Of a DNA stretch of 64,000 bases, positions 13,539-56,075 are shown piece by piece. The stretch spans positions 1,980 through 65,979 of the forward strand of contig CAYZIY010000011.1 in assembly GCA_964478715.1 (NCBI GenBank). The letters run 5' to 3'. Each line of letters opens with the position of its first letter. Within the stretch, counting starts at the first letter, position 1. The position numbers and the translations under genes are program-made. The notes beneath the pieces are model-generated. The model saw nothing but the letters and a program-made list of their open reading frames with translations. It was not told the DNA's origin and did not search any database. Source of the stretch: an uncultured Planctomycetales bacterium. Lineage in GTDB: Bacteria > Omnitrophota > Gorgyraeia > Zapsychrales > JBDRMG01.

Positions 13539-13582
13539 CGCTTCTCCTTTTTTTATTTAAAATCTACTTTTTGCACCTTTTT

Positions 13583-13892
13583 TTATGAAAATGTTTCCGC
13601 GCGCTTAATGCACATTTTTGTTTTCGGCAGTGCTCTGCGCCGTTTATCTTCAATAAGCCCCTTACCATATGCGCATATACTAAAATTCTGATTGTTAATA
13701 TTAGCCAGGTTCTTTTCTAACCCCTGAAGCACATTTTTAAGAGAGCGTAACGTCTGTTCTTCCCATCCTTCCGTGGGATCGATTTGAAATAAAAGGCTTA
13801 CTCTTCGCCTTTAATTTCTCAAGATTCCGCTTAACCGCGTCTATCTGCTTGTGAATCTCTTTTTTAAGCTTTTCTTTCTCTTCCCGTAGCAT
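13583..13892 (-). pseudogene. DksA/TraR-family zinc-finger-like protein, apparently frameshifted (~103 aa if joined)
   Basis: Frame 0 encodes the coiled-coil N-terminus MLREEKEKLKKEIHKQIDAVKRNLEKLKAKS...; the +1 frame encodes ...LKNVLQGLEKNLANINNQNFSICAYGKGLIEDKRRRALPKTKMCIKRAETFS, which aligns with the DksA motif [29 protein letters not shown] (2 of 4 Cys retained). No start codon exists in the second frame. Confidence 0.35.
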
Positions 13893-17888: not shown

Positions 17889-18932
17889 TTATTGCAGATT
17901 ATTGACGGCAATGGATGTCAGTTGCGATAAAGCGTCAATTGAATCGATGCTGTGTTGGTTAAAAATATCTTCTTCGCTTTTGGTGTGTAAATTCAAAATA
18001 CCGATAAGTTTGTTATTTAAGACAAGAGGAGTAACATAGGCATGCTTGATGTCCTCTCGCTTGAGGAAAGGCTGAATCCGGTTATTTTTACAGCGCGTTC
18101 CGTGTATAATTACCGATGATCGCTGATCAGCAACGGTGCCGGAGAGGCCTTCTCCTATTTTGATTCTTGTCTTTCCGGCAATCTGCGGGTCAAGCCCTCG
18201 AGAGGCCATAATTTTTAAAGTTTGACTGCGCTGATCTAAAAGCATTACCGAACCACATTGCGCTCTAGTGACCTTCAGCACAGAATCAAGGAAATGGGCC
18301 AGGACTTCATCAGCATAAACAGTGGCAAACAATTTCTGGGCTTTGCTTCGGATTTCATCCGGGAGAAGATCGTGGTGGAGTGATTCTTTTTTGAAGATCA
18401 ACTCTTTTAGCTTGAGCTGAAGAATATAATTTCCGATTCTGTCGATTAAATCCAGCACAGATTTGATGCCCACAAATGACAAGACCCGCATCTCATTAAT
18501 TGCCTCCAAGAGATTATTGTCGTCAATCTTTAAAGAATCAGCGATTTTTTGATATTCTTTTTTTTCAAGTCTTTTATTTAGAATCACAGGACCTATGACA
18601 ATGTATGCTATCGCTTTATTTTCATCGATATTTAGAGGAACGGCAAAGTTGTGCAGGTCAAATTGGTAGTTGTATTCCAAATAAAATCCATGTCGACGAA
18701 ATTTGTCAATAAAGACACTATGCTCTTCATTAAGCAGATCAAAGTGGACCGGATGTGTTGAAAGAATGCTCCATCCGTAGCGATCCATTTGAGGCGGGAT
18801 AATGGTTTTTCCCGTACGATCCGTAATGAAGATGTTAATCCGAAGGACATCGACTAAAAACCCAAGGATCTCACTCCATTTGTCTTTTTCTATAACTTGC
18901 GCTAACAGATTGTCAGATTTCTCCGGATTCAT
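17889..18932 (-). CDS. GAF domain-containing sensory protein
   Basis: C-terminal GAF-like region; translationally coupled (4-bp overlap) to the upstream response regulator gene. Confidence 0.4.
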   Translation of the reverse strand: MNPEKSDNLLAQVIEKDKWSEILGFLVDVLRINIFITDRTGKTIIPPQMDRYGWSILSTHPVHFDLLNEEHSVFIDKFRRHGFYLEYNYQFDLHNFAVPLNIDENKAIAYIVIGPVILNKRLEKKEYQKIADSLKIDDNNLLEAINEMRVLSFVGIKSVLDLIDRIGNYILQLKLKELIFKKESLHHDLLPDEIRSKAQKLFATVYADEVLAHFLDSVLKVTRAQCGSVMLLDQRSQTLKIMASRGLDPQIAGKTRIKIGEGLSGTVADQRSSVIIHGTRCKNNRIQPFLKREDIKHAYVTPLVLNNKLIGILNLHTKSEEDIFNQHSIDSIDALSQLTSIAVNNLQ

Positions 18933-20329
18933 TCACTGACCTTTTTAAACGGGATATCGAATTTTTTCATTTTATTATAAAGAGTGGTTCGGTTTATTCC
19001 GAGTTGGGCTGCGGCTTTATTGCGGTTCCAATTCGATTGCCTTAAGGCCGAGAGAACCAGCTCCCGCTCAGGTTCTTCTAAAATGGATTTTAGCCCCTTT
19101 CCCTCTACGGGTTTCAGCGAAGAGCTTTCGAATTTATCGGAATTAGGGATATCCCATGCGTTGATGATGTGAGTTTTAGACATGATACAGGCTCCCTCAA
19201 TTGCGTTTTCAAGTTCGCGAACGTTGCCGGGCCAGTTGTATTCTATTAATAATTTTCTCACATCCGGGGACACATTTTCAATGCTTTTGTTGTTTTTTTT
19301 ATTAATTTTCTTTATAAAATGTTCGATCAAAAGTGGAATATCTTCTTTGCGTTCACGCAAAGGCGGCATCTCGATGCCGATTACGTTAATCCGATAGTAA
19401 AGATCTTCTCTGAACTGGCTTTTAGCAACCAGTGTTTTGAGATTTTGATTAGTTGCAACAATGATGCGGGCATTGGTCTTGCGGGTTGTATTATCCCCGA
19501 CTCGCTCAAAGATGCCGTCCTGCAGGACCCTCAGCAATTTTACCTGCAGATTAGGAGAGAATGCGTCGATCTCGTCGAGAAATATCGTTCCGTCTTTGGC
19601 GAATTCGAATCGTCCCTCTTTATCCTTGATTGCTCCCGTAAAAGCGCCTTTGACATGGCCGAAGAGCTCGCTTTCCAAAAGAGTTTCCGAAAGCGCGCCG
19701 CAGCTGACCTCGATAAACGGTTTTTTACTGCGGACGCGGTCTGTCTTGTGTATTGCCTGCGCCACCAGCCCCTTTCCCGTTCCGCTTTCGCCCGTGATCA
19801 TGATTGTGGCATGAGAATTGGCTACCGATTCTATAATATGATAAACTTTCTGCATTTTCTCTCCAGGTCCGATAAGATCATGAAATCGATGAGGGCGTGT
19901 TTTGGAAACTAGCTGGCGCAATTCTTTGTTTTCCTGCACTAATCTTTTTTGTTCCACTATTTTATTAAGCAGAATCTTGATTTCAGTGTCGTTAATGGGC
20001 TTGGTGATATAATCGGTGGCTCCTTTTCGCATGGCCTCCACCGCGCTTTCGATGGTTCCAAATCCGGTGATCAGGATCACTGCGCATTGCGCGAACTCCC
20101 TCTTGATCTGTTCCAGAAGTTCGATCCCGCTCATTTTGGGAAGCATCATGTCAGTGATCACGATATCGATAGGATTTTCTTTAAGAACATCGAGGGCTTC
20201 TTCCGCAGTGGGCGCCATGAAGGCATTATATTTTTCGATTCTCAGAATTTCATAAAGTGATTTTCGGATCAGAGGTTCGTCGTCTACAATCAGGATATTA
20301 TAAGGGTGGTTTTCAGCTAGCATCGTCAT
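18929..20329 (-). CDS. sigma-54-dependent response regulator, NtrC family (PrsR-like)
   Basis: Receiver domain (DD...K), AAA+ sigma-54 interaction domain (GESGTGKG, GAFTGA), C-terminal Fis-type HTH. Confidence 0.85.
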   Translation of the reverse strand: MTMLAENHPYNILIVDDEPLIRKSLYEILRIEKYNAFMAPTAEEALDVLKENPIDIVITDMMLPKMSGIELLEQIKREFAQCAVILITGFGTIESAVEAMRKGATDYITKPINDTEIKILLNKIVEQKRLVQENKELRQLVSKTRPHRFHDLIGPGEKMQKVYHIIESVANSHATIMITGESGTGKGLVAQAIHKTDRVRSKKPFIEVSCGALSETLLESELFGHVKGAFTGAIKDKEGRFEFAKDGTIFLDEIDAFSPNLQVKLLRVLQDGIFERVGDNTTRKTNARIIVATNQNLKTLVAKSQFREDLYYRINVIGIEMPPLRERKEDIPLLIEHFIKKINKKNNKSIENVSPDVRKLLIEYNWPGNVRELENAIEGACIMSKTHIINAWDIPNSDKFESSSLKPVEGKGLKSILEEPERELVLSALRQSNWNRNKAAAQLGINRTTLYNKMKKFDIPFKKVSE

Positions 20330-21617
20330 TTAACAACGGGAGGGTGACTTTAAAAGTTGTCCCGCCTCCGATTTGGCTATCGATGGCAATATGTCCGTTA
20401 TACGCTTTAATGATTTCACTGGTGATTGTCAATCCCAGTCCGCAACCCTTATCGATGTCTTTTGTCGTAAAAAAAGGCTCAAAAATATTCTCCAGGTTTT
20501 CTTCCGGAATACCGCAGCCGGTGTCTTTGATATGGATTTCAACAGCTTTATCCGCCTGTTGAGTTTTTATCGTGATATCTCCTTCTGCATCCATTGCATC
20601 AATGCTGTTACGTAAAAGATTGACCGCTATATGTTCAATTCCAAAATCTGTAATTTCGGGCAAATTTTGCGCAAATTGTTTATCGATTCGAATGTTTTTA
20701 TGATAAATGTCGAGCTTGACGGCTCCCAGGGCATCTTCGATAGCGTGGTGAATATTGACTCTCCTGATTGTCCTCGGGGCATTACGGGAGCAGGCGAGAA
20801 GATTCTTGACGATATTGGCCATGCGGTTCAATCCCTGTTTTGCCTCAAGGAGATAGCCGCGGATTACCTCGTCTGCCTGAAGTTGATCGAGGCTTAAATT
20901 CACATAACGCAATACACCGTCTAGAGGATTGTTGAGTTCATGGGCGATCCCGGCTGTGATTTTACCGATCGAGGCGAGGCGTTCCTGAATAACGATCTGC
21001 TTCTGAAGGCGGTCGGTGGTCTCTTTCTTTTTCCCCAGCTCGTCTTTCAGAGTTTGAGATTCCCTTAGGACTGTTTTGAATTTTTTATACAATTGAGTGC
21101 GACGGTAATTGAGGGCGATTTGACTTGAGAGAAAATCCAGGATCTGAAGCTCTTGAGGAGAAAAATTCTGCCCTGATTCCTTATCGGCAATATTAATAAC
21201 GCCAACCAGAATATCTTTGATCATTAAAGGTGAGCAGATAAAGGATGGCGTGCGGTAATTTTTGCGGCTTTGGTAATCGGGGAAACGCTTGTCGTTGGCA
21301 ATATCGGAAACGAAAATGGGCTGTTTCATTTCAGCGACTTTGCCGACGATTCCCTCTCCCAATTTTTTCACCAGGGTATCCTCTTCCTGTCTTTGCATGC
21401 CCCTGGCAATCTTTAAAATCAATTGCTGGCCGTTTTCGCTCAATATAAAAATGGATCCTCTCTGGGCCTTGAAGAGCTCTAGAGTTTCTTTGAGAGAGAT
21501 TTCAAGCAGGTCTCGGTCGGTTAACGAAACAGTGACAGCATTACAGATCTTTGAGATTTTCTTAAACAGATCTTCGTTTGTTAGGTCAACAAAGTGCGGG
21601 TGAGCCTCTCTATTCAT
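20313..21617 (-). CDS. sensor histidine kinase with N-terminal GAF domain
   Basis: H-box AHELNNPL, HATPase_c (G-boxes DTGCGIP, GLGL), GAF domain; no TM segments. Confidence 0.8.
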   Translation of the reverse strand: MNREAHPHFVDLTNEDLFKKISKICNAVTVSLTDRDLLEISLKETLELFKAQRGSIFILSENGQQLILKIARGMQRQEEDTLVKKLGEGIVGKVAEMKQPIFVSDIANDKRFPDYQSRKNYRTPSFICSPLMIKDILVGVINIADKESGQNFSPQELQILDFLSSQIALNYRRTQLYKKFKTVLRESQTLKDELGKKKETTDRLQKQIVIQERLASIGKITAGIAHELNNPLDGVLRYVNLSLDQLQADEVIRGYLLEAKQGLNRMANIVKNLLACSRNAPRTIRRVNIHHAIEDALGAVKLDIYHKNIRIDKQFAQNLPEITDFGIEHIAVNLLRNSIDAMDAEGDITIKTQQADKAVEIHIKDTGCGIPEENLENIFEPFFTTKDIDKGCGLGLTITSEIIKAYNGHIAIDSQIGGGTTFKVTLPLLNDDAS

Positions 21618-22501
21618 TATGGTTTAAGCGTGACATCCGCATCAGCTTCTTCCACCACATCGAGTTTTTCGATCATCTGCTTGAGGATTTGGGCTAACGG
21701 ATGTTTCGGATTTTCATCGAGGATGTCTTGATAGAGATTGATTGCCCTTTGCTTATCTTTTAGTTGCGTTAAAGAAATGATATTGATCGATTTTAAGATC
21801 GGCTCGGCTGTTTGAGGATGCGGATATTTTCTCAAAGAAAGCGACAGGGCGTCCAGCGCTTGATTCCAGCGCTTAGCGCTCATATAACAATTAGACAGTA
21901 AACCCAGGAGTTTGAATTCCAAATTCTTTGAAGGATCACTATTGAGCATCTCACGATAATGAATGATCGCGTTATTATAGGCTAAGGTGGCCTGCGGCTG
22001 ATTCCCTTTGTTTTCGTAATATTTCGCGATATACAGAGGCCCGGAAAGACCTTCTTCTGTTTGAGGGTATTTCTGGATCATCTCTTTGTAGATCTTTTCG
22101 GCTTCTTCCCAGTTTCCCTGCGCTTCCTGAACTTTGCCCACAGAAACCATGGCTAAGGCACAGATGTTTCTGTTGTTGGGAAATTTTGGGCATATAGAAC
22201 TGAAAATCTCTTTCGCTTTCTCATAATCTTTCTTGATGAGATAAACGCGACCCAAAATAATATGAGTTTGCGGAGTAAATTTGGAATCAGGGAAGCGCGT
22301 GATCACGGCTCGATATTGACCGGCCAGTCTCTCGAAGGCTTGATCAGGAAAAGATTCCGTGCTTTTAACCATTTTGGCAAATTGTCGATCGGCTTTCCAG
22401 AGCATTTTTTCCGCCGCAAAATCGTCTTTCTGAGATAAAAAGGTTAAAATGCCGAAGACCCCGATAAGGATAATGCAGAGAATAATGATCGTCTTTTTCA
22501 T
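21617..22501 (-). CDS. TPR-repeat protein with N-terminal membrane anchor
   Basis: N-terminal TM helix, multiple TPR-like repeats. Confidence 0.5.
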   Translation of the reverse strand: MKKTIIILCIILIGVFGILTFLSQKDDFAAEKMLWKADRQFAKMVKSTESFPDQAFERLAGQYRAVITRFPDSKFTPQTHIILGRVYLIKKDYEKAKEIFSSICPKFPNNRNICALAMVSVGKVQEAQGNWEEAEKIYKEMIQKYPQTEEGLSGPLYIAKYYENKGNQPQATLAYNNAIIHYREMLNSDPSKNLEFKLLGLLSNCYMSAKRWNQALDALSLSLRKYPHPQTAEPILKSINIISLTQLKDKQRAINLYQDILDENPKHPLAQILKQMIEKLDVVEEADADVTLKP

Positions 22502-23379
22502 AATCGTTCCTTTGCTGATAGGTAAAATATGGTTGTCGCGGTAAGTATTACCGCTTCCAGCATTAATTGCACGATAATGCTTATAGCAATTATAATTGCC
22601 TGGATTTGGGGAAAGCTTATCATAATTTGACCCGATAAGACAATTTGCCGTATCAAAATTATCGGAACATAAAGAAACATGGGTAAAAAGATGACAAACG
22701 CTATAAACCAGAAATGACGAAACAGCACCTTGAAGTTTTCGAGTATTGCCTTATGGATTTTAACCTTTTCAATCACAACGATAGGAAGAATAAAGGCGTA
22801 GAGGATTGTAATAAAAATGTTGATCAAGAGACCGAAGTAAGGCTTTCCGAAAATAACAAGATTTTTAACCGCCGCATACAGGCCTGTTTCCGAGCGGATA
22901 CGCAAAGCTCTATCAAAAGCAATATCGTAAATTTCAAGAAAAAGAAAGACAGTCGCAAAGGTTAAGACAGCCGCCAGGACAATATGAATATATTGTGATC
23001 GAATCTTGCGAAAAACAGATTTCAGAGAAATATTTTTTCCGGCATTAACGAATTCCACGATTCCGATCACAGAGGCGCTTAAGAAACTGCCAATAAAAAG
23101 ATATACCGGAACCTGGGCATCAAAAAATAATTTTGGGAGTAAGTCGTAAAAGAAAGGAAAGTGAACAAATCGAAGCGCAAACTGTTTCTCGATTATGGGG
23201 CCAAAGAAATTGACCAATGGCCAGCGCGGAGCAAACATGAGGATTTCTAATATCAACAGCTGGATGAAGGCCGTAATCACCAATGGATACATAATAACAG
23301 GATGTCCCACAAGGGTATTGACACTTGTCTTAATCAAATCAAGGACATGTTCCTTCTTTCCGGTCGATTTTCTCATCAC
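22498..23379 (-). CDS. polytopic membrane protein of unknown function
   Basis: 293 aa, ~7 hydrophobic helices; 4-bp overlap with downstream TPR gene. Confidence 0.4.
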   Translation of the reverse strand: MMRKSTGKKEHVLDLIKTSVNTLVGHPVIMYPLVITAFIQLLILEILMFAPRWPLVNFFGPIIEKQFALRFVHFPFFYDLLPKLFFDAQVPVYLFIGSFLSASVIGIVEFVNAGKNISLKSVFRKIRSQYIHIVLAAVLTFATVFLFLEIYDIAFDRALRIRSETGLYAAVKNLVIFGKPYFGLLINIFITILYAFILPIVVIEKVKIHKAILENFKVLFRHFWFIAFVIFLPMFLYVPIILIRQIVLSGQIMISFPQIQAIIIAISIIVQLMLEAVILTATTIFYLSAKERL

Positions 23380-23430: not shown

Positions 23431-23459
23431 ATTGTAGCACAGGGAAATCCTGCTGTCAA
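23431..23459 (-). promoter_or_regulatory. sigma-70-like promoter (TTGACA-17-TACAAT) for the membrane/TPR/HK/RR operon
   Basis: Minus strand ttgacagcaggatttccctgtgctacaat, ~50 nt upstream of the ATG at 23379. Confidence 0.4.
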
Positions 23460-23470
23460 TAATCCTTGAA

Positions 23471-23508
23471 TTCAAAAAATAATGGCAGGTTAAATTTAAC
23501 CTGCCATT
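23471..23508 (-). terminator. intrinsic terminator of the PEP-CTERM gene array
   Basis: Perfect hairpin aatggcaggttaaa/tttaacctgccatt followed by a U6 tract on the minus strand. Confidence 0.55.
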
Positions 23509-23592
23509 ATCGTTTTATAGAGATGCATAAAACAGGCTGTTATCGACTTGCTGTCTTTAAGTCGATAGTATCTTTTGCTTTAAACGCCTGCC

Positions 23593-23889
23593 TTATCGAC
23601 TGATTTTTCTCTTATAAACAGCCATGGCAGCCAATCCGCCCGTTAACAAAAGCATTGTAGCCGGTTCGGGATTATGAATTGTCGCGATCGTTTCCGGTCC
23701 GGTTTGCAATGTTGTGACGATTGTTGCGCCGCCATCTCCTGTTCCTCCTGTCGCAGCCGGTGATGCCGGTCCACTGACGCCCAGAGCGCTTGCTAGACCG
23801 CCCCCGCCGCCAGTTTGACATCCGTATACAAACGGCAATACCACAGAAAGAATGCTGAAGTTGATGAAGCGTGCTAATGTTCTTTTCAT
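23593..23889 (-). CDS. PEP-CTERM sorting domain protein (Gly-rich, small)
   Basis: C-terminal PEPATMLLLTGGLAAMAVYKRKISR; signal peptide MKRTLARFINFSILSVVLPFVYGC; ATG start preferred over upstream TTG. Confidence 0.75.
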   Translation of the reverse strand: MKRTLARFINFSILSVVLPFVYGCQTGGGGGLASALGVSGPASPAATGGTGDGGATIVTTLQTGPETIATIHNPEPATMLLLTGGLAAMAVYKRKISR

Positions 23890-23923
23890 AATTGACTCTT
23901 TCAAGATAAATGTGATTAAATGA

Positions 23924-24781
23924 TTACGATCTCTTTTTTCTAAAGCCCACAAAACCTAAAAGGCCGCTTCCAAGAAGCAGTAAACTCATCGGTTCCGGTA
24001 CGGGAGCGACTTTGGTGATTAAAAACATTGTATCATTATAGTCACTGTCAAACATTGGATCATCTAATGCGAGATCTTCAAACCCGATTAAATAAGTGTG
24101 ATAATCAAGTGTGATTTCGATAGGATCAGCATCACCCAGCTGAATCCACAGTGTTTCGCCTTCCAGTTCGGGAAGATGATAAGCCAGCATGTGATCTAAC
24201 GGATCAGAATTTAAATCCGGATCAGAGTACCATGTTTTAACTTGAGAACCATAGACGCTGGTCAAAGAAAATCCGAAATTCTCAAAACTTGTAAACGGAT
24301 TAATGCCGCCTGGAAAAGGATTACCGGATGTTCCGTCTCCTAAAAATCCATCATTAGGCCCTAAATTAATGACATCGATAATGTCATCAGGTAAGGTTGC
24401 GCCGTATTCAAAAACGCCTAATGTGTTGCTGGCAGCAGCGCTGAGTCCAATTGCAGCGAAGTTACTGGCCTGATCTCCGCCTAAATCATACCAGTATGAG
24501 TTGGGAACGGTGACCATGGCTGAATCAGCATCTTCATTGCTGGAATAAGCCTCAAATCCCAAAAGAAAATTGATGGCTTCATACAATTGAGGATATTGAT
24601 CTTCTCCAGTATAATCCGGATTCTCATTGTTAGACTGTTGCGGGGTTTGGACCGCATCTGGCGTGGAATCATATCCGTCCACAGTCATGATCGGATCATA
24701 CGGACCCGGATCGGCGATCGCCATTGTGCCAAAACTCGCAAGCGCCAGACTAATCGCCAGGCTTAAGATTAACTTTTTCAT
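23924..24781 (-). CDS. PEP-CTERM sorting domain protein (acidic)
   Basis: Signal peptide; D/E-rich; C-terminal VPEPMSLLLLGSGLLGFVGFRKKRS. Confidence 0.8.
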   Translation of the reverse strand: MKKLILSLAISLALASFGTMAIADPGPYDPIMTVDGYDSTPDAVQTPQQSNNENPDYTGEDQYPQLYEAINFLLGFEAYSSNEDADSAMVTVPNSYWYDLGGDQASNFAAIGLSAAASNTLGVFEYGATLPDDIIDVINLGPNDGFLGDGTSGNPFPGGINPFTSFENFGFSLTSVYGSQVKTWYSDPDLNSDPLDHMLAYHLPELEGETLWIQLGDADPIEITLDYHTYLIGFEDLALDDPMFDSDYNDTMFLITKVAPVPEPMSLLLLGSGLLGFVGFRKKRS

Positions 24782-24865
24782 TTGACTCCTCCTTATTATT
24801 ACTTCTTTGTTTTTATTTTTTTCGTATATTAACGGACACCTTTGGCAGTGCCGATCAAGCTGAGG

Positions 24866-25627
24866 TTATAAAATCCTTTTCTTCTTTAATCCTATAAGGC
24901 CTAATAAACCGCCCGATAATAATGAAAGGCTTATCGGTTCGGGAACGGCATCGGTTGTCCTTGCTGTTAAAGCCAGAGAACCTCCAAATTCAGCGTTTAA
25001 GAATTCCGGCCAGCTAATATCCCATGGAAGCTCAATTTCTTCATTTTCTAAGATTGCCGGAATGGAATCATAGAGCGCCAAATAGACTTCTCCGCTCTCC
25101 AAGTCGCCATTGATTAGATATCCCCCGATATCATCATCGCCTTCAGAAAGAGGAATTCCGGAAAGGTAAGTTAAGACGTCTTCTTCGCTGGCTCCAAGGA
25201 GTCCGGACAGAGAAAATGTTCCTAGTTCGATACCGGATTCCGAGAAGCTTTCTTCAAAATCGCCTTCCTCATAGCTGCCCTCTGCCCAGAGATCTGCATC
25301 GAGAGTCCAGTCGTAAACGGTATCCCAGTCTGGAAGATTCCAGTCAAATTCATAAGCTACAGCGCCAACGCCGAAAAAAGGACCATGAGAATTAAGCTCA
25401 TCCAAAATTTCAGAATCCATCTCCAACCAGGATTGTGTTTCCAGGTCGGGTCTGCTGTCATAAGGGAAATACCCCGGCTCTTCATCATCCAGCCAGGCTT
25501 CAGGCCCGTAAAGAATACCTCCGAAAAAATCAAGGGTTGAGGTTTGGGCTGATGCTGAGCTGACCATGAAAGCTAAAGCAATAACTGCAAGAATGATACT
25601 TTTCATTCGACCTTTCCTTTCTTTCAT
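24866..25627 (-). CDS. PEP-CTERM sorting domain protein (highly acidic)
   Basis: Signal peptide; C-terminal VPEPISLSLLSGGLLGLIGLKKKRIL. Confidence 0.8.
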   Translation of the reverse strand: MKERKGRMKSIILAVIALAFMVSSASAQTSTLDFFGGILYGPEAWLDDEEPGYFPYDSRPDLETQSWLEMDSEILDELNSHGPFFGVGAVAYEFDWNLPDWDTVYDWTLDADLWAEGSYEEGDFEESFSESGIELGTFSLSGLLGASEEDVLTYLSGIPLSEGDDDIGGYLINGDLESGEVYLALYDSIPAILENEEIELPWDISWPEFLNAEFGGSLALTARTTDAVPEPISLSLLSGGLLGLIGLKKKRIL

Positions 25628-25631
25628 TATT

Positions 25632-26282
25632 TTATTGTTTTCTTCTTTTAACCGCGAAACCGACTAGACCTGTCCCTAGCAATAAAAGAGAAGCCGGCTC
25701 AGGCACAACAGGTTCACCATTTTCCGCCAGGACCATTCTCGCAAAAGCAAATCCGTTTGGATTCTGATCTTGTTCATTAAAAGCGACATTGATTGTCATA
25801 GCAGCGATATCCCCCTCAGTCCAGCCGAAAAATTGAGCACCGGAATTTCCCGCGACCGGAATAGTCAATGAAGAATCATCGCTCAATGTTAAAGTGACAT
25901 CGAAAATACTGTAAACATTGGGTTCAATCTCCAGTCCGAAGGCATAAAGAGAAGAATCGAATGTTCCCGTCAAAGTGTTAGGGCTGCTGACTAAGACAGC
26001 GCCGGTATAACCGCCGGACCATGTGGCCCAACCGGATCCGATTGTGCGCCTCGTTAAGTCGGCATCGAAGCTGATCGATTTGCTTTGAGGCAATGATAAC
26101 GGGGTTCCGGCCGTCAAGACATCGCCGTTATTGGGAAGCTGAGGTGTAAAATCAACATCAAAAAATGAATCCACAGCTCCTTCCCAGCTGGCTCTGTTAT
26201 CCCAGAGCGTTATCGCATGCGCGTTTTGCGCTAATGCGATACTCACGCAGATGACCAGAGCGGAAATTAGATACTTTTTCAT
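25632..26282 (-). CDS. PEP-CTERM sorting domain protein
   Basis: Signal peptide; C-terminal VPEPASLLLLGTGLVGFAVKRRKQ. Confidence 0.8.
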   Translation of the reverse strand: MKKYLISALVICVSIALAQNAHAITLWDNRASWEGAVDSFFDVDFTPQLPNNGDVLTAGTPLSLPQSKSISFDADLTRRTIGSGWATWSGGYTGAVLVSSPNTLTGTFDSSLYAFGLEIEPNVYSIFDVTLTLSDDSSLTIPVAGNSGAQFFGWTEGDIAAMTINVAFNEQDQNPNGFAFARMVLAENGEPVVPEPASLLLLGTGLVGFAVKRRKQ

Positions 26283-26283
26283 A

Positions 26284-27030
26284 TTAGCTCCTCCTTCTTT
26301 TTATAAGACCAATTAGTCCCAGTCCTAGCAAGCTCAACGTTGCCGGTTCGGGGATAACGGGTTCTTCTTCGCCCTGACCGACCCAGCTGGCCACATTGAT
26401 TGAGAATTGTCCGTTGTCCGCGTATGACCAGTAATCATCGCTGAAAACATTGACATCAAGCATCGCTAATACATTATCTTGAGGGCCCCACAATGTCGCG
26501 ATGCTGTCGTCAAAAAGGGAAATGCCGCCGTCAGCCCGCCCGCCGTTCGGAACATAAATCGAACTGACGCCATTTGTTAATGCGTGATCGAGAACCGTAT
26601 TGTAAACACCGTTTGTTTCGTAATTCGCGTCATGTCCACCCAGCAAGGAAAGGAATGATTCATTCCATGTATTCCAACCGGTATTTTCGCCCATGAAGAC
26701 AACGCGACCGCCGTTATTTATGAACGAACTAAGATTCACGGCTTCAGCTGTGTTGAGTGATCCCGGTGAAGCATCCCAATCACTCTTTCGAAGGTCTACC
26801 CATACAGCATCGGCATTTGCGACCTGTGAAACATCGCCAAGGTTTGATACGACAGTAAAGCCTCCTGAGTAACTCGCGTTTAAGGCGGATGTCATTTGCG
26901 TCCAGTAAGAACTGCCGTAACCATAGTTGGTGCTATGCATTGATTCAGAAACTAAAATATAGGCCTGCGCCTGACTGCCCGCAAAAAGAACTAAAGAGAT
27001 GATTGCCATGGTTACAAATATTTTTTTCAT
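26284..27030 (-). CDS. PEP-CTERM sorting domain protein
   Basis: Signal peptide; C-terminal IPEPATLSLLGLGLIGLIKRRRS. Confidence 0.8.
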   Translation of the reverse strand: MKKIFVTMAIISLVLFAGSQAQAYILVSESMHSTNYGYGSSYWTQMTSALNASYSGGFTVVSNLGDVSQVANADAVWVDLRKSDWDASPGSLNTAEAVNLSSFINNGGRVVFMGENTGWNTWNESFLSLLGGHDANYETNGVYNTVLDHALTNGVSSIYVPNGGRADGGISLFDDSIATLWGPQDNVLAMLDVNVFSDDYWSYADNGQFSINVASWVGQGEEEPVIPEPATLSLLGLGLIGLIKRRRS

Positions 27031-27077
27031 TTCTGACCTTTTCTTTATTATTAATAGTTGAACGTGCTAATCTGGCA

Positions 27078-27656
27078 CTAAACCGTCATTTTTTTTCTAA
27101 TCAATCCAACCAGCCCCAACCCTAAAAGGGTTAAAGTTGCCGGCTCAGGAACCGGGCACTGGGTTTCGGGAGTTAAGCCGGTGATATCAAGATCGTAGGT
27201 CCAGCCGGAGCTTCCGCCACCTGTAAATCCAAAATCGCTATAGCCTGTCGCGGCAACACCATAATATCCGGAAGAAGCAATGGCATAGTTGTAGATAGCT
27301 GAATTATAGCCGGTGTATCCATCATCATTGTAAGCAAGCTGAACTCCCGATGGAGAATAAAATCCAAGCAAAGGATCGTTTGTGTAGCTTGTGCCGCCAG
27401 GAGCGACATAGATCATCGTGATGATGTCGCCGGATGTGGCGTAAAATCTGTAGAAATCAACGGAGCTATCTCCAACTCGTGAACCATCAATATGGACCGT
27501 TCCATCATGTCCATAGAGAAATTGTGCCGTACCAAAAGAATTGTTTGTCTCAACTTCTGTATAAATGGTAGCTTGAGCTGCAGGAGTTAATGTTAAAAGA
27601 AGTCCTATAATTCCAATCATAACCAGTAAATACTTCATGCCTTCTCCTTTATCCAT
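27078..27656 (-). CDS. PEP-CTERM sorting domain protein
   Basis: Signal peptide (probable start MKYLLVM); C-terminal VPEPATLTLLGLGLVGLIRKKMTV. Confidence 0.8.
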   Translation of the reverse strand: MDKGEGMKYLLVMIGIIGLLLTLTPAAQATIYTEVETNNSFGTAQFLYGHDGTVHIDGSRVGDSSVDFYRFYATSGDIITMIYVAPGGTSYTNDPLLGFYSPSGVQLAYNDDGYTGYNSAIYNYAIASSGYYGVAATGYSDFGFTGGGSSGWTYDLDITGLTPETQCPVPEPATLTLLGLGLVGLIRKKMTV

Positions 27657-27667
27657 TATTGAGGTTT

Positions 27668-28543
27668 TTAACGCGCACCTTCACCCGTTAAGACAACACG
27701 GATGGTCCTTACTATAATTGTTAAATCCGTCCAAAGACAAAGTTTACGGATGTAGAGTAGATCGTATTTGATTTTTTTCTTCACATCGTTGATTGACTCA
27801 TCGTATTTATGCCAAACTTGAGCCAAGCCGGTAATGCCGGGTTTGACTTTCAGTCTTTTTTCATAATCAGGGATTACTTTTTTGAATTCATCGACAAACA
27901 TGGGGCGTTCCGGTCGCGGACCGATCAGGCTCATATCCCCTTTAAGGATATTGACAAACTGCGGTATTTCGTCCATGTGGGTTTTACGGATTAGCCCGCC
28001 CAGCGGAATCAATCTTTTATCATTATCCGAAGCCCACACAGGGCCGGAATGATCTTCAGCATCAACATGCATGGTTCGAAACTTATAAATGGTAAAAAGC
28101 TGCCCGTTTTTTCCCACGCGCGTCTGCTGGTAGATAATGGGACCCCGGCTTGTCAATTTGATCAAGACAGCCAAAAAGAGACAGATGGGCGAGGCGAGAA
28201 TGATCCCCATGGCAGCGGCCACAATATCAAAAAGTCTTTTGACTTTCTGATAAATTTTTCGGACAAAACCTACCATCATGCCGAAGATGCCGCTTCCAAA
28301 AAGAGCCAATGTGGTTGGCTCAGGGGCGCGCGAACGGGATTCTTCGGGTAAAACCGGTTTAATAGATTCAATACCTTGACGATTAACAGATGGATGATCG
28401 TGCGGCTTGATTAAAGAGAGTGCAGCCCAGGTTGTTGTCCCAAAAATAACGACCAAAGCAAAAGCGGAAATAGCCAAAGTAACCCGTTTAAATCTTTTTT
28501 TGGATTTTTTTCGGTAAATTGTTCGAGAAAGCGCTTTCTTCAT
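27668..28543 (-). CDS. polyprenyl glycosylphosphotransferase (bacterial sugar transferase, EpsL/WbaP-C-like) with N-terminal PEP-CTERM-like module
   Basis: Catalytic domain with KRLFDIV...PICLFLAVLIKLTSRGPIIYQQTRVGKNGQLFTIYKFRTM and DEIPQF...GPRPERP; N-terminal 100 aa carry a signal anchor plus APEPTTLALFGSGIFGMMVGFVRK. Confidence 0.8.
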   Translation of the reverse strand: MKKALSRTIYRKKSKKRFKRVTLAISAFALVVIFGTTTWAALSLIKPHDHPSVNRQGIESIKPVLPEESRSRAPEPTTLALFGSGIFGMMVGFVRKIYQKVKRLFDIVAAAMGIILASPICLFLAVLIKLTSRGPIIYQQTRVGKNGQLFTIYKFRTMHVDAEDHSGPVWASDNDKRLIPLGGLIRKTHMDEIPQFVNILKGDMSLIGPRPERPMFVDEFKKVIPDYEKRLKVKPGITGLAQVWHKYDESINDVKKKIKYDLLYIRKLCLWTDLTIIVRTIRVVLTGEGAR

Positions 28544-28771
28544 GATACCTTATATTGAAGCAAATAGCGTGCCATAATTTCATAAAGAAGGCAGAATTAT
28601 GGACAAATCTTATCTTATTGTCATTCAATGTGTTATGCGTCAATAATTTGGCATGAAAACAATTAGTCATGGTAAAACCTACCAGAGGTATGACATACCA
28701 TGACAATACCATGTCCTAAACCTTCGACATGTTTTACCCTTTCATCATTTATTTATTAATTCTGATTTTAT

Positions 28772-29416
28772 TTATGGTAAATATTCCTGCAGGAGCGGTA
28801 TGATTGTCCGGACAAAGTTCTTCATGACGGAAATCGTTTGGGGTGTATTTTCATATGTTGCGGGTGAGGATACACGGATCAGGGCACTGCTGGCTGATTG
28901 TCCCACTAAAGTTTTTAGGGCAATCAGGATCTGCTGCTTCCAGTAGCTAGAGGTGAATATATTACCGACTTTAAACCAATAAAAAGCGATTTGTTTGTCT
29001 CCTCTTCCCTCGAGAGAGAGACGGTTGACGTCAATCACCAGATTTTCCTTTGGGACCGGAATCTTGTCTTTTTCATTTTCTAAAATCGTAATGCCGCCGC
29101 CGGTGTAGCAGACTTCCGGAGGATGCGTGGCCTTGCGGTTGTTTTCCGTGTAGACAATAAATAAAAACATCTGCTCGCCTTCGGGATTCGAATATTCCCG
29201 CACAAAGGCGTTGCGGGTTTCCAGAATCGCATATTCCTTGTCGCTGATAGGCAGTTCCCGCGAGGTCCATTCTCCAATTGTTTTGGGGAACAGATGAATG
29301 TCAACCGATGTTGTCTGCTTGTATCGTTTGAAATACAGCGACCATGTGATCACGGCCACTAAAAGAAAAATTGTAATTAAGACGATAAAATTTTTGTCTT
29401 TCTTGACACGCATCAT
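28772..29416 (-). CDS. EpsI-family exosortase-associated protein
   Basis: ~210 aa, N-terminal anchor, periplasmic domain typical of EpsI (DUF3485-like); 4-bp overlap with the exosortase gene. Confidence 0.65.
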   Translation of the reverse strand: MMRVKKDKNFIVLITIFLLVAVITWSLYFKRYKQTTSVDIHLFPKTIGEWTSRELPISDKEYAILETRNAFVREYSNPEGEQMFLFIVYTENNRKATHPPEVCYTGGGITILENEKDKIPVPKENLVIDVNRLSLEGRGDKQIAFYWFKVGNIFTSSYWKQQILIALKTLVGQSASSALIRVSSPATYENTPQTISVMKNFVRTIIPLLQEYLP

Positions 29417-30255
29417 TCCAAAACCTTTCCCACAAAATACAACAATACGAAAGCGATCGCAAAGACCAGGAATCCGGAGAAATCATGCACAAAGCCTGTG
29501 GCATATTGCGCCCCCCAGATTTCCGAGACAAAAGATAAAAAAATCACACGGATCACATTGGTGATAATGGCGATAGGAATTGTTGAAAGAAACAGTATCG
29601 TTTTTTTCACCCAGCCGGTTGTCATCCAGTAGGCAAAAATGCTACCCAGCGCGGTCAATGAAATCAGAGAGCGTAGTCCGCTGCAAACATCATCGACGAC
29701 AACATGGGTATGGCGCATCTTGATGATGCTGCCTTCCCGGATCGCCAGGATGTTCATCTTATTGAGTATGACGGCTGCGATATGGGCGGCGAACAGTTTC
29801 ATTTTAAAGCTGATATTGCTGATTACAACCATCGGAAGCGGAATCATAAAAAACAAAAAAGCAATGGGAAACGCGACAATTTTTAATATCGCGAATCCGT
29901 AAAAATGAAGAATCAAGCCGATGAGAACAAAAAGCATGGAAAAACCGGACGTAAAATAGACGCGGAACAGAGAACTAAAAACATGGATAACCAGGCCTAT
30001 GATGATCAGCTTCAATCCCAGCGGAGATGATTTGATCTTGCACTTGGCCAGTTCATCTCTCTTTTGCCAAATGAGATAAATGCTGACGAAAGGAATTAAA
30101 ATTCCATGTGAATAATAGGAATCACGGGCAAACCACCTCTGCCACATCCAAAGAAACGTCGGAATATACATAATCAGAAAGACGGCGATGAGGATGAGTT
30201 CGGACTGGAAGTTTTTAGCCGTTTTGAGCAGGTTTTTAGTACTAAGCTTTTTCAT
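29413..30255 (-). CDS. exosortase (EpsH/Xrt family)
   Basis: 280 aa, ~8 TM helices, conserved active-site region VDDVCSGLRSL (Cys and Arg of exosortases). Confidence 0.75.
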   Translation of the reverse strand: MKKLSTKNLLKTAKNFQSELILIAVFLIMYIPTFLWMWQRWFARDSYYSHGILIPFVSIYLIWQKRDELAKCKIKSSPLGLKLIIIGLVIHVFSSLFRVYFTSGFSMLFVLIGLILHFYGFAILKIVAFPIAFLFFMIPLPMVVISNISFKMKLFAAHIAAVILNKMNILAIREGSIIKMRHTHVVVDDVCSGLRSLISLTALGSIFAYWMTTGWVKKTILFLSTIPIAIITNVIRVIFLSFVSEIWGAQYATGFVHDFSGFLVFAIAFVLLYFVGKVLE

Positions 30256-30511
30256 AATATTGCCTCAAGCCTCAAGTTACAGGCTGCAGACACATGCTTC
30301 AGGCTACTTGCCCCATATTTTTTCGATCTGTTTCTATGAACGTCTACTGCCAGTATATGGGCCATCTTATAAATATCTAAATCTCTGTAATTTTGCATTC
30401 ACTTTTACTTCTATATCTTGCAACCTGTGGTTTAAGTCACCAGTATTCAGCCTGTAAGCTTGCTGGCTGAATCTGTAGCCTGTGACTTGCAGCCTGCGGC
30501 AATAATTAATG

Positions 30512-31669
30512 TCAAACACTTCTCGCCTTCTCCCACCTGATCGACTGCCCCGACGAGAGATATTTGAGAAATCCCACCAGAGCCGAAAAATTCAATAAGC
30601 AAAACACGTAGGGCACATAGCAAAGCCATGCAATGGGTTTAAGCATACCATACTTTTTATCTCTTAACAAGTATCCGCACAGCGCCAGGATATAAAACAG
30701 AATCTGCAGCATCATGACTTCAAAATAACATCCAAAGATGGATGTCGCCAAAGGCATATTGACCAAAAATAAACCGATCATCAAAAAGGGAGCCGTCACC
30801 CTTAAAAATTTATGAGAGAAAAACTGGATAGCGATCGGGCTTTTGCCGGGATGAAAAAGATGGGCAAAAGCCCGGAACATCTGAAAATTCCCATAAAGTG
30901 TTCGTGTTTTCCGTCGGTGTTCTTCTTGTGGATTATCTGCAGGCTTATCATAAGCAATGGCCGAAGAATCAAAAATCGCCCGGTGACCCTTTTCGATTAT
31001 TTTAAGCGGAATATACATATCATCGAGAACAATATCTTCCGGAGGACTGCAAAAAAGTTTTTTTCGAATAGCATAAATTGCACCTGTTGCTCCAAGCATA
31101 GAATGAACTTTGCTTTCCGAGCTTCGCATCAACTTTTCATAATTCCAATACAAAGAAATCCCTCTGGATGTCGAACCTTTAGCAGATTTAAAAATAAGCT
31201 CACCACTTGCGCAACCTACTTTTGGATCCTCGAAGTTCTTTACTAGATTAGAGACGGCATTTGGATCAAATTCTTGTCTAGCATCTGTGAAAACAAGAAT
31301 CTCTCCCTTTGCTCTGCTGACAAGATTGTTAAGAACGCTAATCTTTCCTCTTCGATTTTTTTTATCTATAACTACTATGTTATCGGCTATGTTTTTCTTG
31401 ATAATCGATGCGGTATTGTCGCTGCAGCCGTCGCATCCAATGAGGATCTTGAGTTTACCTTTTTTATACTTGAGGCTCTCAAGATTCTTAATCTTATTTT
31501 CAATGACATCAGCTTCATTGTAAACCGAGATGAGGATCGAGACACTTGGCGTGATCTCTCCTCTCTCTACTTCCTTCTCTTGATAAAAAGAAAGTATCCA
31601 GATTCCAAGAGGATATCCGAAATAGCAATAAATCAATAAGATCAAAAACAACCAAAACAAGAAGCTCAT
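30512..31669 (-). CDS. glycosyltransferase family 2 (membrane-associated, processive-type)
   Basis: VSILISVYNE...DGCSDNT GT-A motifs, C-terminal TM helices. Confidence 0.7.
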   Translation of the reverse strand: MSFLFWLFLILLIYCYFGYPLGIWILSFYQEKEVERGEITPSVSILISVYNEADVIENKIKNLESLKYKKGKLKILIGCDGCSDNTASIIKKNIADNIVVIDKKNRRGKISVLNNLVSRAKGEILVFTDARQEFDPNAVSNLVKNFEDPKVGCASGELIFKSAKGSTSRGISLYWNYEKLMRSSESKVHSMLGATGAIYAIRKKLFCSPPEDIVLDDMYIPLKIIEKGHRAIFDSSAIAYDKPADNPQEEHRRKTRTLYGNFQMFRAFAHLFHPGKSPIAIQFFSHKFLRVTAPFLMIGLFLVNMPLATSIFGCYFEVMMLQILFYILALCGYLLRDKKYGMLKPIAWLCYVPYVFCLLNFSALVGFLKYLSSGQSIRWEKARSV

Positions 31670-33682: not shown

Positions 33683-34792
33683 CTATATAAGAAGATTAAG
33701 AAATTCCAAAGCAGGAGCGGCGCGAATTCCTTCAGGGGTGATGTAGTTCTTTTTGCCCGTAGCATGGATTTGCCAGGCTTCGGATTTCGGAAACTTGTTT
33801 TTTAGATACTTCAATGATTTACTGATTGCATCATCCGAGTATTTGCATTCAATTAATGTGACTGGAGAATTGTTTTCAACAATGACAAAATCGACTTCCC
33901 GTCCGTCGATATCCCGGAAATAGCGAAGATCAATATCGCGTCCTTTAGTGTCCTGCTCATAATGAATCCATTTTAAAAGATGTGATGCCACCAAATTTTC
34001 AAAGCGCTGCGGCCATTGCGGCACCAGAGACCAGTCAAAATGATAATGCTTTTGCTCTTTTTTGACGGCTCGGATCTTTGGTGCGCCAAAGGGGCTTAAT
34101 CGAAAGATCGCATAAATTCTTTCAAGCACGGCGATCCAGGACGAAAGCGTTTTATGGCTCACCTGGAGGTCTTCACGTAAGGCGTTTAATGAAAGCGGAC
34201 TCGCCACAAGATCTGGAAGGCGAATCATCAGGAGTTCCAGGCGGCCAAGATCCTGGATTCTTTCTAAAGAGAGAACGTCTTCGCGAATCAATCGATTGCG
34301 ATATTCCCGTGACCATCTTTTGGCTTCTATTTTTGATCCACCGAGAAAAGGTTCGGGAAAGCCTCCCAATTCAAGAAGAGACATGAAATCTTCTTGTTTC
34401 CTGATTTTTAGCTCTGCAACAGATAGCGGATGGAGACGCAGATAATGATATCTTCCCTGAAGAGAGTCTCCCCCAAATCGGTATAAATCCAATCTGGCGC
34501 TTCCGGTTACGAGGATTTTAAGGTTTTTTGGCGAAGCATCGTATAAACCTTTGAGATAATTACGCCAACCCCTATATTTGTGCAACTCGTCAAAAACAAG
34601 GAATTTAGCTGGTGGAAGCTCACGCTTGAGGATGAGCTCACGATGTTGTGCAATATCCCAATTCAGGTATCCTTTGAAATCTTTAAGAACGGCTTTAGCA
34701 AGGGTTGTTTTTCCGACCTGACGCGGTCCTCCGAGAAACACCATTTTTTTGGATAAATCGTGATTAACTTGAGAAGTCAGATAACGTTTCAT
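33683..34792 (-). CDS. AAA+ ATPase with C-terminal DUF4143 / PD-(D/E)xK-like domain (COG1373 family)
   Basis: Walker A GGPRQVGKTT, Walker B LVFDELH; C-terminal DIDGREVDFVIVE...IECK nuclease-like motif. Confidence 0.7.
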   Translation of the reverse strand: MKRYLTSQVNHDLSKKMVFLGGPRQVGKTTLAKAVLKDFKGYLNWDIAQHRELILKRELPPAKFLVFDELHKYRGWRNYLKGLYDASPKNLKILVTGSARLDLYRFGGDSLQGRYHYLRLHPLSVAELKIRKQEDFMSLLELGGFPEPFLGGSKIEAKRWSREYRNRLIREDVLSLERIQDLGRLELLMIRLPDLVASPLSLNALREDLQVSHKTLSSWIAVLERIYAIFRLSPFGAPKIRAVKKEQKHYHFDWSLVPQWPQRFENLVASHLLKWIHYEQDTKGRDIDLRYFRDIDGREVDFVIVENNSPVTLIECKYSDDAISKSLKYLKNKFPKSEAWQIHATGKKNYITPEGIRAAPALEFLNLLI

Positions 34793-54625: not shown

Positions 54626-55435
54626 TTACTCCACTATTCTGGCCAGGCCTTTATCCAGAAGCTCCTGATTGAGAAGGCGACCATGGCTTAAAATTGTTTC
54701 TTTATCCGTCTCCCCTTTCAAATACCAGAGATCCACAATGTAGCGGCCGAATTTGCCGGCTTTATACGAGCGGATAACAACACCGCCCTCAGAGAGGCAA
54801 TCCTCGACAAATACTTTGGCTTGGCCGCCTTTTTTCGTCCCTTTTTCCGGGCAGTTAATGCCCCGCAAACGCACTTTGTGCTCCATTTTGGCCTTGAAAC
54901 CGACATCGATATCAAGAACAAGCGTGTCGGCATCAACAACCCGGGCTACCTGTGCCGCATAGGTATATAATTTTTGGTTAAGATCTCTGAGCCGGGGCCC
55001 GTCATTTTTGTTTGTGGCCCCGGCTTCACATCTGTTTTCGTAATAATTATTGCGGATTCTCAATCGCAGTTCATGTGAGCTCCACTGATTGAGCGCGGCA
55101 CTTTGGATATAGAAGGAGCGCTCTTTTCTGTCGGCCACATACAAAAGGGCGGCATAATGCGACCAATTCAGCGGATGTCCCTCGATTTCATCTTTAAATC
55201 CGTCCGGATATTGCCGGAAAAAACGAACGCATTTTTCCAGCGTTCCTCTGGATGCGCCCGCATCGAGCGCGATATTCTTAATGACTTCTCCGCTTTTACG
55301 GGTGTAACCATAAACAGACTCTCCGATGATCCAGTAGGCATTGAGCGTCTGAAGACGCTCATCATCGTTAGCTGTGTACTGCTCGACTTTCTCCAGTCTT
55401 TTTTGAATATCTTTAACTAGTTTTTGATAAGACAT
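54626..55435 (-). CDS. nuclease-domain fusion protein: YhcG/DUF1016-like N-terminal domain + staphylococcal nuclease (SNase/thermonuclease) domain
   Basis: C-terminal VVDADTLVLDI...KVRLRGINCPEK SNase catalytic signature; N-terminal ~130 aa resemble the DUF1016 N-domain (uncertain). Confidence 0.55.
   Translation of the reverse strand: MSYQKLVKDIQKRLEKVEQYTANDDERLQTLNAYWIIGESVYGYTRKSGEVIKNIALDAGASRGTLEKCVRFFRQYPDGFKDEIEGHPLNWSHYAALLYVADRKERSFYIQSAALNQWSSHELRLRIRNNYYENRCEAGATNKNDGPRLRDLNQKLYTYAAQVARVVDADTLVLDIDVGFKAKMEHKVRLRGINCPEKGTKKGGQAKVFVEDCLSEGGVVIRSYKAGKFGRYIVDLWYLKGETDKETILSHGRLLNQELLDKGLARIVE
54640..54670. repeat. 31-bp direct repeat (right copy) at the 3' end of the SNase-fusion gene
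   Basis: See left copy. Confidence 0.6.
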
Positions 55436-56071: not shown

Positions 56072-56075
56072 ATCA

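Follow-up and report, generated by a model that had tools for sequence, protein, structure and literature searches.

PEP-CTERM/exosortase systems are widespread in environmental bacteria, and the Omnitrophota are mostly uncultured. Two questions in this field are what exosortase attaches its substrates to, and how protein sorting and polysaccharide synthesis are coordinated. Here we describe a 64,000-nucleotide stretch of contig CAYZIY010000011.1 (assembly GCA_964478715.1, positions 1,980 to 65,979 of the forward strand; hereafter the window) from an organism labelled as an uncultured Planctomycetales bacterium and placed by GTDB in the Omnitrophota, as the homologues of its PGT (see below) also indicate. 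The PEP-CTERM/exosortase locus of the XrtA kind that it carries is a known system, and its six-gene array of sorting substrates beside an exosortase is real but ordinary. The unusual part is a priming phosphoglycosyl transferase (PGT) with a complete PEP-CTERM module ahead of its catalytic domain, encoded in one operon with the cargo proteins. This sorting-tagged priming enzyme and the conserved gene module around it are what appears to be new.

Prediction of the PEP-CTERM/exosortase system dates from 2006, and the XrtA locus described then (PMC1569441) offers the nearest comparison. Shared with it are an exosortase with three characteristic motifs, EpsI and several PEP-CTERM proteins that bear signal peptides; a sigma-54 promoter before the PEP-CTERM genes, near which a histidine kinase, a sigma-54 response regulator and a TPR protein are also encoded; and genes for Wza, a chain-length determinant, a tyrosine kinase, a 'pepcterm_ATPase', an O-antigen-ligase-like protein and stp1-like products. 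The window differs from the XrtA locus in phylum, being from the Omnitrophota, and every XrtA-specific equivalog scores under its cutoff here, including pepcterm_ATPase (305 vs 325) and ChnLen (250 vs 279). The kinase here is a soluble GAF kinase, whereas PrsK is transmembrane, and the cargo genes lie in one operon with the PGT gene, whereas single-gene operons are typical there (PMC1569441). For the proteobacterial trio PrsK/PrsR/PrsT (PMC1569441), the window has genes in an analogous position and with analogous domain logic, but their products are not members of those families. This region is very probably the part of an XrtA-like exopolysaccharide locus that is central to protein sorting.

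Priming sugar transferases with a PF02397 domain are also found in described PEP-CTERM loci, as EpsB_2 (TIGR03013), and EpsB2 is needed for floc formation in Aquincola (PMC9850573). The TIGR03013 proteins are large PGTs of ~443 residues. The PGT of the window, in contrast, matches just profile positions 244-443 (264.8 vs 393.4) and has a PEP-CTERM module as its N-terminus instead. In Aquincola, moreover, the polysaccharide genes were reported to be RpoN-independent (PMC9850573), whereas here the PGT gene stands right behind a sigma-54 promoter. Small PGTs consist of the core only, and large PGTs of a bundle of four transmembrane helices, a PF13727 domain and the core (PMC10312794). The PGT of the window shares the re-entrant helix and catalytic core of PglC (8E37, 8G1N) and WbaP (8T53), but it fits neither class, given the ~96 residues (signal peptide, linker and PEP-CTERM helix) before the core. 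The literature that we found on PGT fusions does not mention a fusion to a sorting signal, and NCBIfam release 20 has no model for a PEP-CTERM-PGT fusion. Neither a PEP-CTERM module before a PGT nor exosortases in Omnitrophota are described in the full-text literature searched, which included few subscription-journal papers.

A priming transferase with an internal sorting module

The PGT gene is the first gene of the cargo operon (Table 1). Over residues 97-290 its product matches the catalytic cores of WbaP (8T53, E = 1e-35) and PglC (8E37, E = 2e-32), and the residue groups S118-P119 in the re-entrant helix, D191-E192 in the conserved MDEIPQ and P209-R210-P211 (the PRP motif) are invariant or nearly so, as is a PRPERP stretch. 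Given that no second PGT was found among the open reading frames of the polysaccharide locus in which it lies (~17.9-63.4 kb of the window), the PEP-tagged PGT is presumably the priming enzyme.

The ~96 residues before the re-entrant helix begin with a basic N-terminus and a hydrophobic segment that ends in a conserved A-W-A, followed by a variable linker of ~33 residues. After the linker come R-A-P-E-P, an 18-residue helix and V-R-K, and then the re-entrant helix. Two sorting-signal profiles recognise this embedded domain (Table 1), and it shares with the cargo tails the pattern PEP-x-[ST]-[LM]-x-L-[FL]-G-x-G. The predicted topology, in which the N-terminus is inside, the linker outside, and the helix leads back in so that the basic residues and the enzyme are cytoplasmic, would place the PEP on the periplasmic face. 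The exosortase motifs are likewise predicted to lie at the periplasmic face (PMC1569441). In 26 PGT homologues of 57-65% identity, A73, P74, E75, P76, L81, G83 and G88 never change, in contrast to the variable linker. All of the 120 best homologue clusters have xAPEP followed by a helix, and in 97 of them the motif is RAPEP.

A pattern scan with one genome per species gave 31 confirmed related loci. Nearly all are from metagenome-assembled genomes (MAGs) of Candidatus Omnitrophota, some of them labelled 'uncultured Planctomycetales' and one 'Lysobacterales'. The shared order is a GT2 glycosyltransferase, exosortase, EpsI, a sigma-54 promoter, the PEP-PGT, 0-8 PEP-CTERM genes, a polytopic membrane protein that we call memb293, a TPR protein, a GAF kinase, a sigma-54 regulator and a PocR-GAF protein, and the whole module is syntenic in ~30 Omnitrophota genomes. 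In the Omnitrophota loci the PGT gene is always beside the exosortase/EpsI pair. The one PEP-bearing protein common to the related loci is the PGT; the set of cargo proteins differs from locus to locus.

A profile of the N-terminal module and re-entrant helix of the PGT was searched against 1.84 billion representative proteins. Among the proteins found are longer ones, in which a passenger of 75-265 residues is followed by [VIA]PEP, a helix, basic residues and the PGT core; the passengers of P0159, P0161, P0174, P0176, P0179 and P0225 have 130-265 residues. Those of P0161, P0176 and P0168 match a free-standing PEP-CTERM protein of 543 residues in locus L038 (E = 2e-60 to 3e-27), and that of P0225, from an Elusimicrobiota MAG, matches a 201-residue cargo protein of the Omnitrophota locus L003 (E = 9e-20). 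Given that the same passengers occur either as free-standing cargo or fused to a PGT, the module before the PGTs derives from a true cargo sorting signal, which it also resembles. Genes for such fusions lie at 10001-11266 in L038 (an Elusimicrobiota MAG), 10001-11377 in L039 and 10001-11119 in L040. In L039 the fusion P0159 is within the same exosortase/EpsI/memb293/TPR module, and in L038 memb293 and the TPR protein are kept beside the PGT. L040 has no exosortase within 10 kb and carries type IX secretion markers (PorV, Por_Secre_tail). A separate protein, P0250 (1011 aa), has four PEP-CTERM modules and a fifth at its C-terminal end, with an apparent new signal peptide after each internal one. 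It may be a true polyprotein, or else tandem cargo genes were read through or mis-called as one.

Possible roles of the module

We suspect that the NtrC-type regulator and the GAF kinase switch on the PGT and its cargo together via sigma-54. In this scenario, the six cargo proteins would pass through Sec and stay anchored in the inner membrane through the PEP-CTERM helix, and exosortase and EpsI would cleave them or transfer them into the extracellular matrix, as in the standard model for these families. The exosortase would also recognise the PEP module of the PGT, where its action would most likely be cleavage. The 'cargo' would then be the short N-terminal peptide (in the longer fusions, the passenger), and the transmembrane helix with the PGT would be the leaving group, retained in the membrane beside the exosortase. 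In this way the initiation of an undecaprenyl-phosphate-linked sugar would be coupled, spatially and quantitatively, to the sorting enzyme of the matrix proteins. Invariance, predicted topology, synteny and the passenger fusions together make it rather probable that the exosortase physically engages the module. That the PGT is actually cleaved is a weaker proposition, to which we give slightly less than an even chance.

Several observations weigh against this scenario. A PEP-CTERM domain stands at the end of its protein 'virtually without exception' (PMC1569441), and the module of the PGT, at residues 73-96 of 291 with the catalytic domain after it, breaks this defining position. We therefore term it PEP-CTERM-like and internal rather than a classical member, and it may not be processed as cargo is. 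The residue before PEP is Ala, preceded by R, H or K, in the PGT, and V, I, P or N in the cargo, which could mean that the two are not handled alike and that the PGT is, for example, bound but not cleaved. The identity of cargo tails to the PGT module is no higher within a locus than between loci (0.390 vs 0.383, p = 0.2), a comparison of little weight. The AlphaFold2 model of the PGT has a predicted local distance difference test (pLDDT) score under 50 over residues 45-83, with a confident catalytic core. The ATG at 28543 is just 15 nt past the -12 element, which would make the transcript near-leaderless, so that neither its start nor the start codon is firm. In the regulatory part, the kinase, regulator and TPR proteins all score under the PrsK, PrsR and PrsT cutoffs.

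Binding without cleavage is the substance of a rival explanation, in which the PGT module fills the substrate groove of the exosortase as an uncleaved pseudo-substrate or tether. The resulting complex might have lipid-linked sugar made beside the sorting enzyme, possibly as its acceptor, or the PGT might compete with cargo. The conservation and synteny that speak for cleavage speak as well for such docking, the [RHK]-A-PEP of the PGT vs the [VIPN]-PEP of the cargo and the fewer basic residues right after the PGT helix favour it, and PMC12802240 provides a precedent for regulation of a PGT through protein-protein contact. The related fusions, however, carry a full-size passenger that is also found as ordinary cleavable cargo, which is hard to square with a pure tether, and several of them have the cargo-type [VI]PEP; docking alone seems to us rather unlikely. 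More improbable still is an inert two-helix anchor that the exosortase ignores, left over from the fusion of a small PEP-CTERM gene with a small PGT gene downstream; the locus would then be an ordinary PEP-CTERM/exosortase one that calls for no additional explanation. The ~96-residue N-terminal module matches the cargo protein C6 (98 aa) in size and layout, so a fusion origin is plausible; the lack of covariation between cargo tails and the PGT module of the same locus is in keeping with an anchor, and no curated family or searched literature assigns the module a function. But a plain anchor needs no invariant A-P-E-P and G-x-G over 120 clusters (55-65% identity) while the linker drifts, fusions with different passengers in at least two phyla suggest repeated selection, and the PGT always adjoins the exosortase in the Omnitrophota loci.

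The start codon of the PGT is ambiguous between the ATG at 28543 and a TTG at 28477 (codon 23), which is the start in the NCBI call (P0001, 269 aa) and would drop the basic n-region that homologues keep. This ambiguity and the shorter NCBI product could be taken to mean that a sequencing or assembly frameshift joins a separate small upstream PEP open reading frame to the PGT. Such an annotation artefact is effectively refuted by an uninterrupted frame in more than 120 independent clusters and in 31 genome loci of different assemblies, and the PEP module is retained with either start.

A further extension of the cleavage scenario can be drawn from sortase. Sortase A, with LPXTG and lipid II in Gram-positive bacteria, is a conceptual analogue without homology, and we know of no sortase substrate in which the enzyme responsible for the lipid-linked precursor is itself the leaving group. 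Sortase is a Cys transpeptidase that cuts a motif before a transmembrane helix and a basic tail, with an undecaprenyl-pyrophosphate-linked precursor as the acceptor (PMC1569441). By analogy, exosortase might cut the passenger-PEP-CTERM-PGT protein, and the undecaprenyl-pyrophosphate-linked glycan of the PGT might be the nucleophile or acceptor for cargo, as lipid II is for sortase. We consider this unlikely. If true, it would put a name to the acceptor in the reaction of a system proposed in 2006, and would account for the way in which PEP-CTERM proteins keep exopolysaccharide on the cell.

A sorting signal on the enzyme that makes the first lipid-linked sugar represents a concrete and testable physical link between sorting and polysaccharide synthesis. 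The PEP-PGT fusion is strictly conserved, never parted from the exosortase in Omnitrophota loci, and recurs with different passengers in two phyla or more. The compact syntenic module, now defined from the GT2 enzyme through the PocR-GAF sensor, could be reconstituted as a unit and points to a regulated surface-matrix programme in Omnitrophota.

Exosortase, EpsI and the six cargo proteins

A PEP-CTERM/exosortase system with six substrates is very probably encoded in the window. An initial annotation of this DNA had placed exosortase and EpsI immediately adjacent to the array. They are indeed directly upstream of the operon: on the minus strand the order is exosortase, EpsI, a gap of 228 nt, PGT and six PEP-CTERM open reading frames, and the exosortase and EpsI genes overlap by 4 nt. 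Profile searches recognise the PEP-CTERM tails, the exosortase and EpsI alike. The exosortase scores under the cutoff of every subtype model, including XrtA (TIGR03109, 186.1 vs 208), XrtD (198.7 vs 400) and XrtW (192.5 vs 425), and XrtV, XrtB and others score lower; it is thus left without an assigned subtype.

Invariant in 30 exosortase orthologues are C191-x-G193, N233-x-x-R236 and H257-x-x-x-G261. The motifs C-x-G, N-x-x-R and H-x-x-x-G are the three defined for exosortases by Haft et al. (PMC1569441). An active site of the form CxGxR had been proposed for this protein. It does have a conserved Cys and a conserved Arg, but the Arg of C-S-G-L-R varies among orthologues, and the invariant one is R236 in N-x-x-R.

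The six consecutive minus-strand genes with a signal peptide and a PEP-CTERM tail, as first described, are all borne out by open reading frames and profiles. The cargo tails consist of (V/I/N)PEP, a transmembrane helix and a cluster of R and K at the extreme C-terminus. All six are above the TIGR02595 cutoff of 16 bits (19.2-30.7 bits), and five reach the PF07589 cutoff of 20.7, with C4 at 18.4. A regular-expression search in six frames found seven PEP-transmembrane-basic modules in the window, those of the six cargo proteins and of the PGT, confined to this operon. All seven fit Pro-Glu-Pro, then a transmembrane helix of ~14-20 residues, then a basic cluster. By inspection of n-region and h-region, C1-C5 have a Sec-type signal peptide with an A-x-A site, and C6 has one with a lipobox. 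The likelier start of C1 is Met7 at 27638, behind a GGAGAAGG Shine-Dalgarno sequence, and that of C4 is Met8 at 25606. C6 has an ATG start; a TTG at 23952 gives a longer, less likely open reading frame.

The Asp/Glu-rich low-complexity domains ascribed to these proteins are present in part. The mature regions of all six are acidic (core isoelectric point 4.05-4.35, K+R 0-3%, net charge -2 to -46), but D+E ranges from just 4% in C6 to 24% in C4. Stretches of low entropy occur in C1, C4, C5 and C6 alone, and cover only part of each. Acidic repeats had also been described here, and on this point pairwise BLAST disagrees. Outside the tail, similarity is detectable just among C1, C2 and C3 (~28% identity, E ~1e-8), and the array is thus not a set of repeats.

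The cargo proteins also differ in how far they recur in other loci. C6 is found in at least 17 (the C6 passenger alone finds 11 of these with phmmer), C5 in 10, C3 in one, and C1, C2 and C4 in none. C5 scores 26.1 with PF13448, just below the cutoff of 27. C6, usually the last cargo gene, has a lipobox (VYG/C, with the slash marking the cleavage site) and a Gly/Ser-rich linker, and the lipobox Cys is invariant in an alignment of 18 loci. As a lipoprotein whose C-terminal sorting signal provides another anchor, C6 could tether the membrane or cell to the matrix.

Regulation and the wider locus

Table 1. Features of the sorting region and its conserved module. Profile scores are followed by the cutoff after 'vs' where given.
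Feature	Coordinates	Strand	Evidence and remarks
Membrane GT2 glycosyltransferase	30512..31669	-	PF00535 and PF13641; first gene of conserved module
Exosortase, XrtA-like	29413..30255	-	TIGR02602 179.8 vs 105.6; PF09721 224.7 vs 25.7
EpsI	28772..29416	-	TIGR02914 108.9 vs 42.8; PF11984 119.2
Sigma-54 promoter (-24/-12) TGGCACgctatTTGCT	28559..28574	-	zero mismatches; only perfect consensus match in the window
Palindrome GAAAGCGCTTTC, 12 nt, candidate operator or leader element	28527..28538	-	20 nt past -12 element
Monotopic PGT with N-terminal PEP-CTERM module	27668..28543	-	PF02397 225.5; TIGR03025 301.4 vs 295.6
Embedded PEP-CTERM sorting domain of PGT, residues 73-96 APEPTTLALFGSGIFGMMVGFVRK	28256..28327	-	TIGR02595 21.7 vs 16; PF07589 21.4 vs 20.7
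C1, acidic PEP-CTERM protein, lineage-specific	27078..27656	-	TIGR02595 19.2
C2, acidic PEP-CTERM protein, lineage-specific	26284..27030	-	TIGR02595 22.9; weak paralogue of C1 and C3
C3, acidic PEP-CTERM protein	25632..26282	-	TIGR02595 30.7; orthologue in L003
C4, very acidic PEP-CTERM protein, lineage-specific	24866..25627	-	TIGR02595 19.2; 24% D+E, net charge -46
C5, acidic PEP-CTERM protein, DUF4114-like region, conserved family	23924..24781	-	TIGR02595 25.4
C6, small lipoprotein (98 aa), HNPEP-type PEP-CTERM tail, conserved family	23593..23889	-	TIGR02595 19.9
Intrinsic terminator ending PGT-cargo operon	23472..23511	-	15-bp stem, 4-nt loop, then U tract
Sigma-70-like promoter TTGACA-17-TACAAT, extended TG	23431..23459	-	11/12 consensus positions, best in region; consensus match only
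memb293, conserved polytopic membrane protein	22498..23379	-	no Pfam/NCBIfam match; always after PGT-cargo block
TPR protein, PrsT-like by position	21617..22501	-	TIGR02917 40.4 vs 312; syntenic in related loci
GAF-domain histidine kinase, cytoplasmic, not PrsK	20313..21617	-	TIGR02916 82 vs 300
NtrC-type sigma-54-dependent response regulator	18929..20329	-	TIGR02915 (PrsR) 400.7 vs 502.6; syntenic in related loci
PocR-GAF sensory protein	17889..18932	-	PF10114 and PF13185; last gene of conserved module; syntenic in related loci

PEP-CTERM genes are known sigma-54 targets in proteobacteria (PMC1569441; PMC9850573), and in Aquincola the sigma-54 dependence of a PEP-CTERM gene was shown experimentally (PMC9850573). 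We scanned for the consensus TGGCAC-N5-TTGCW. The promoter upstream of the PGT recurs as TGGCA[CT]-N5-TTGCT at the same place in 28 of 32 non-redundant related loci, or 29 of 33 with the window included. With up to two mismatches allowed, the intergenic gaps of the cargo array contain no further match, and the sole other one lies inside the PGT coding region. The strict consensus is absent in the more distant fusion loci L038-L040, and sigma-54 control may therefore be specific to the Omnitrophota module. The NtrC-type response regulator, whose top profile match is AtoC-like (433.9), is a candidate activator of the promoter in the window.

The gaps downstream of the PGT are 11, 47, 1, 4, 84 and 34 nt, taking the longest open reading frames and C6 from its ATG. 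A hairpin with a U tract had been reported at the end of the operon and is confirmed, with the hairpin at 23478-23511; it folds at -21.8 kcal/mol (z = -8), and none of 200 shuffled sequences folds as well. From the single sigma-54 promoter, the short gaps and the one strong terminator we infer, with good support, that the PGT and the six cargo genes are co-transcribed. The sigma-70-like promoter right after this terminator suggests that memb293, the TPR protein, the kinase and the regulator form a separate and possibly constitutive transcription unit.

The GAAAGCGCTTTC palindrome covers codons 2-6 of the long PGT open reading frame in the window, and in several related loci an element of this type sits in the 5' leader. 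With up to two mismatches it is found 20-26 nt past the promoter in 11 of 29 loci, against 37 matches in total in 595 kb of locus sequence. The loci other than the window that have it are L007, L013, L017, L018, L023, L024, L025, L028 and L034. Upstream of the sigma-54 promoter, the motifs AACATGT and TGTTG-N8-CAACA recur in 8-12 of 29 loci, ~150-190 nt from the promoter, as candidate enhancer sites. Candidate sites of this sort in the window, on the minus strand, are ACATGT (28727-28732) and GGTATGTCATACC (28687-28699), the latter a perfect 6-1-6 palindrome.

Among the other genes of the module, a GT2 orthologue adjoins the exosortase in most related loci, and GAF, HisKA and HATPase domains are visible in orthologues of the kinase. 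The memb293 protein (~290 aa) has 22 homologues, of which the named ones are from Omnitrophota. Its gene is syntenic in ~25 Omnitrophota loci, the window included, and is also present in L038 (Elusimicrobiota, 13021-13863) and L039 (11589-12458). The AlphaFold2 model of memb293 has a pLDDT of 87, and a fold search of the PDB gave no significant match (best E = 0.27, TM-score ~0.44, to CTL/Pns1 and CysZ-like transporters).

The module is part of a single minus-strand polysaccharide locus of ~46 kb. This locus encodes Wza, a chain-length determinant, a tyrosine kinase, a 'pepcterm_ATPase'-like AAA protein, a Wzx-like flippase, a Wzy/O-antigen-ligase-like protein, many GT2 and GT4 enzymes, a methyltransferase, an acyltransferase, an epimerase and stp1-like proteins. 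The top NCBIfam matches of its proteins are XrtA-system families, all under cutoff.

Two large minus-strand genes inside the biosynthetic cluster, at 36058-38076 and 42784-44334, have weak matches: one to a GH123 N-terminal domain, the other to ArfA (arabinofuranosidase-like), with no Pfam family. In several related loci a small 'four-helix bundle' gene (PF05635, a family named for 23S rRNA intervening sequences) lies in the interval between GT2 and exosortase or between exosortase and EpsI, as at 2714-3100 in L001, 7517-7915 in L003 and 1820-2173 in L039; the window has a gap of 256 nt there (30256-30511). Apparent secondary insertions amid the cluster, all on the minus strand, are at 33683-34792, 53277-54419, 54626-55435 and 55457-56852. 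They comprise two AAA_14/DUF4143 ATPases, a DUF1016/SNase nuclease-like gene and an AbiEi/AbiEii toxin-antitoxin pair, and an AbiEii gene is also found near the module in L001.

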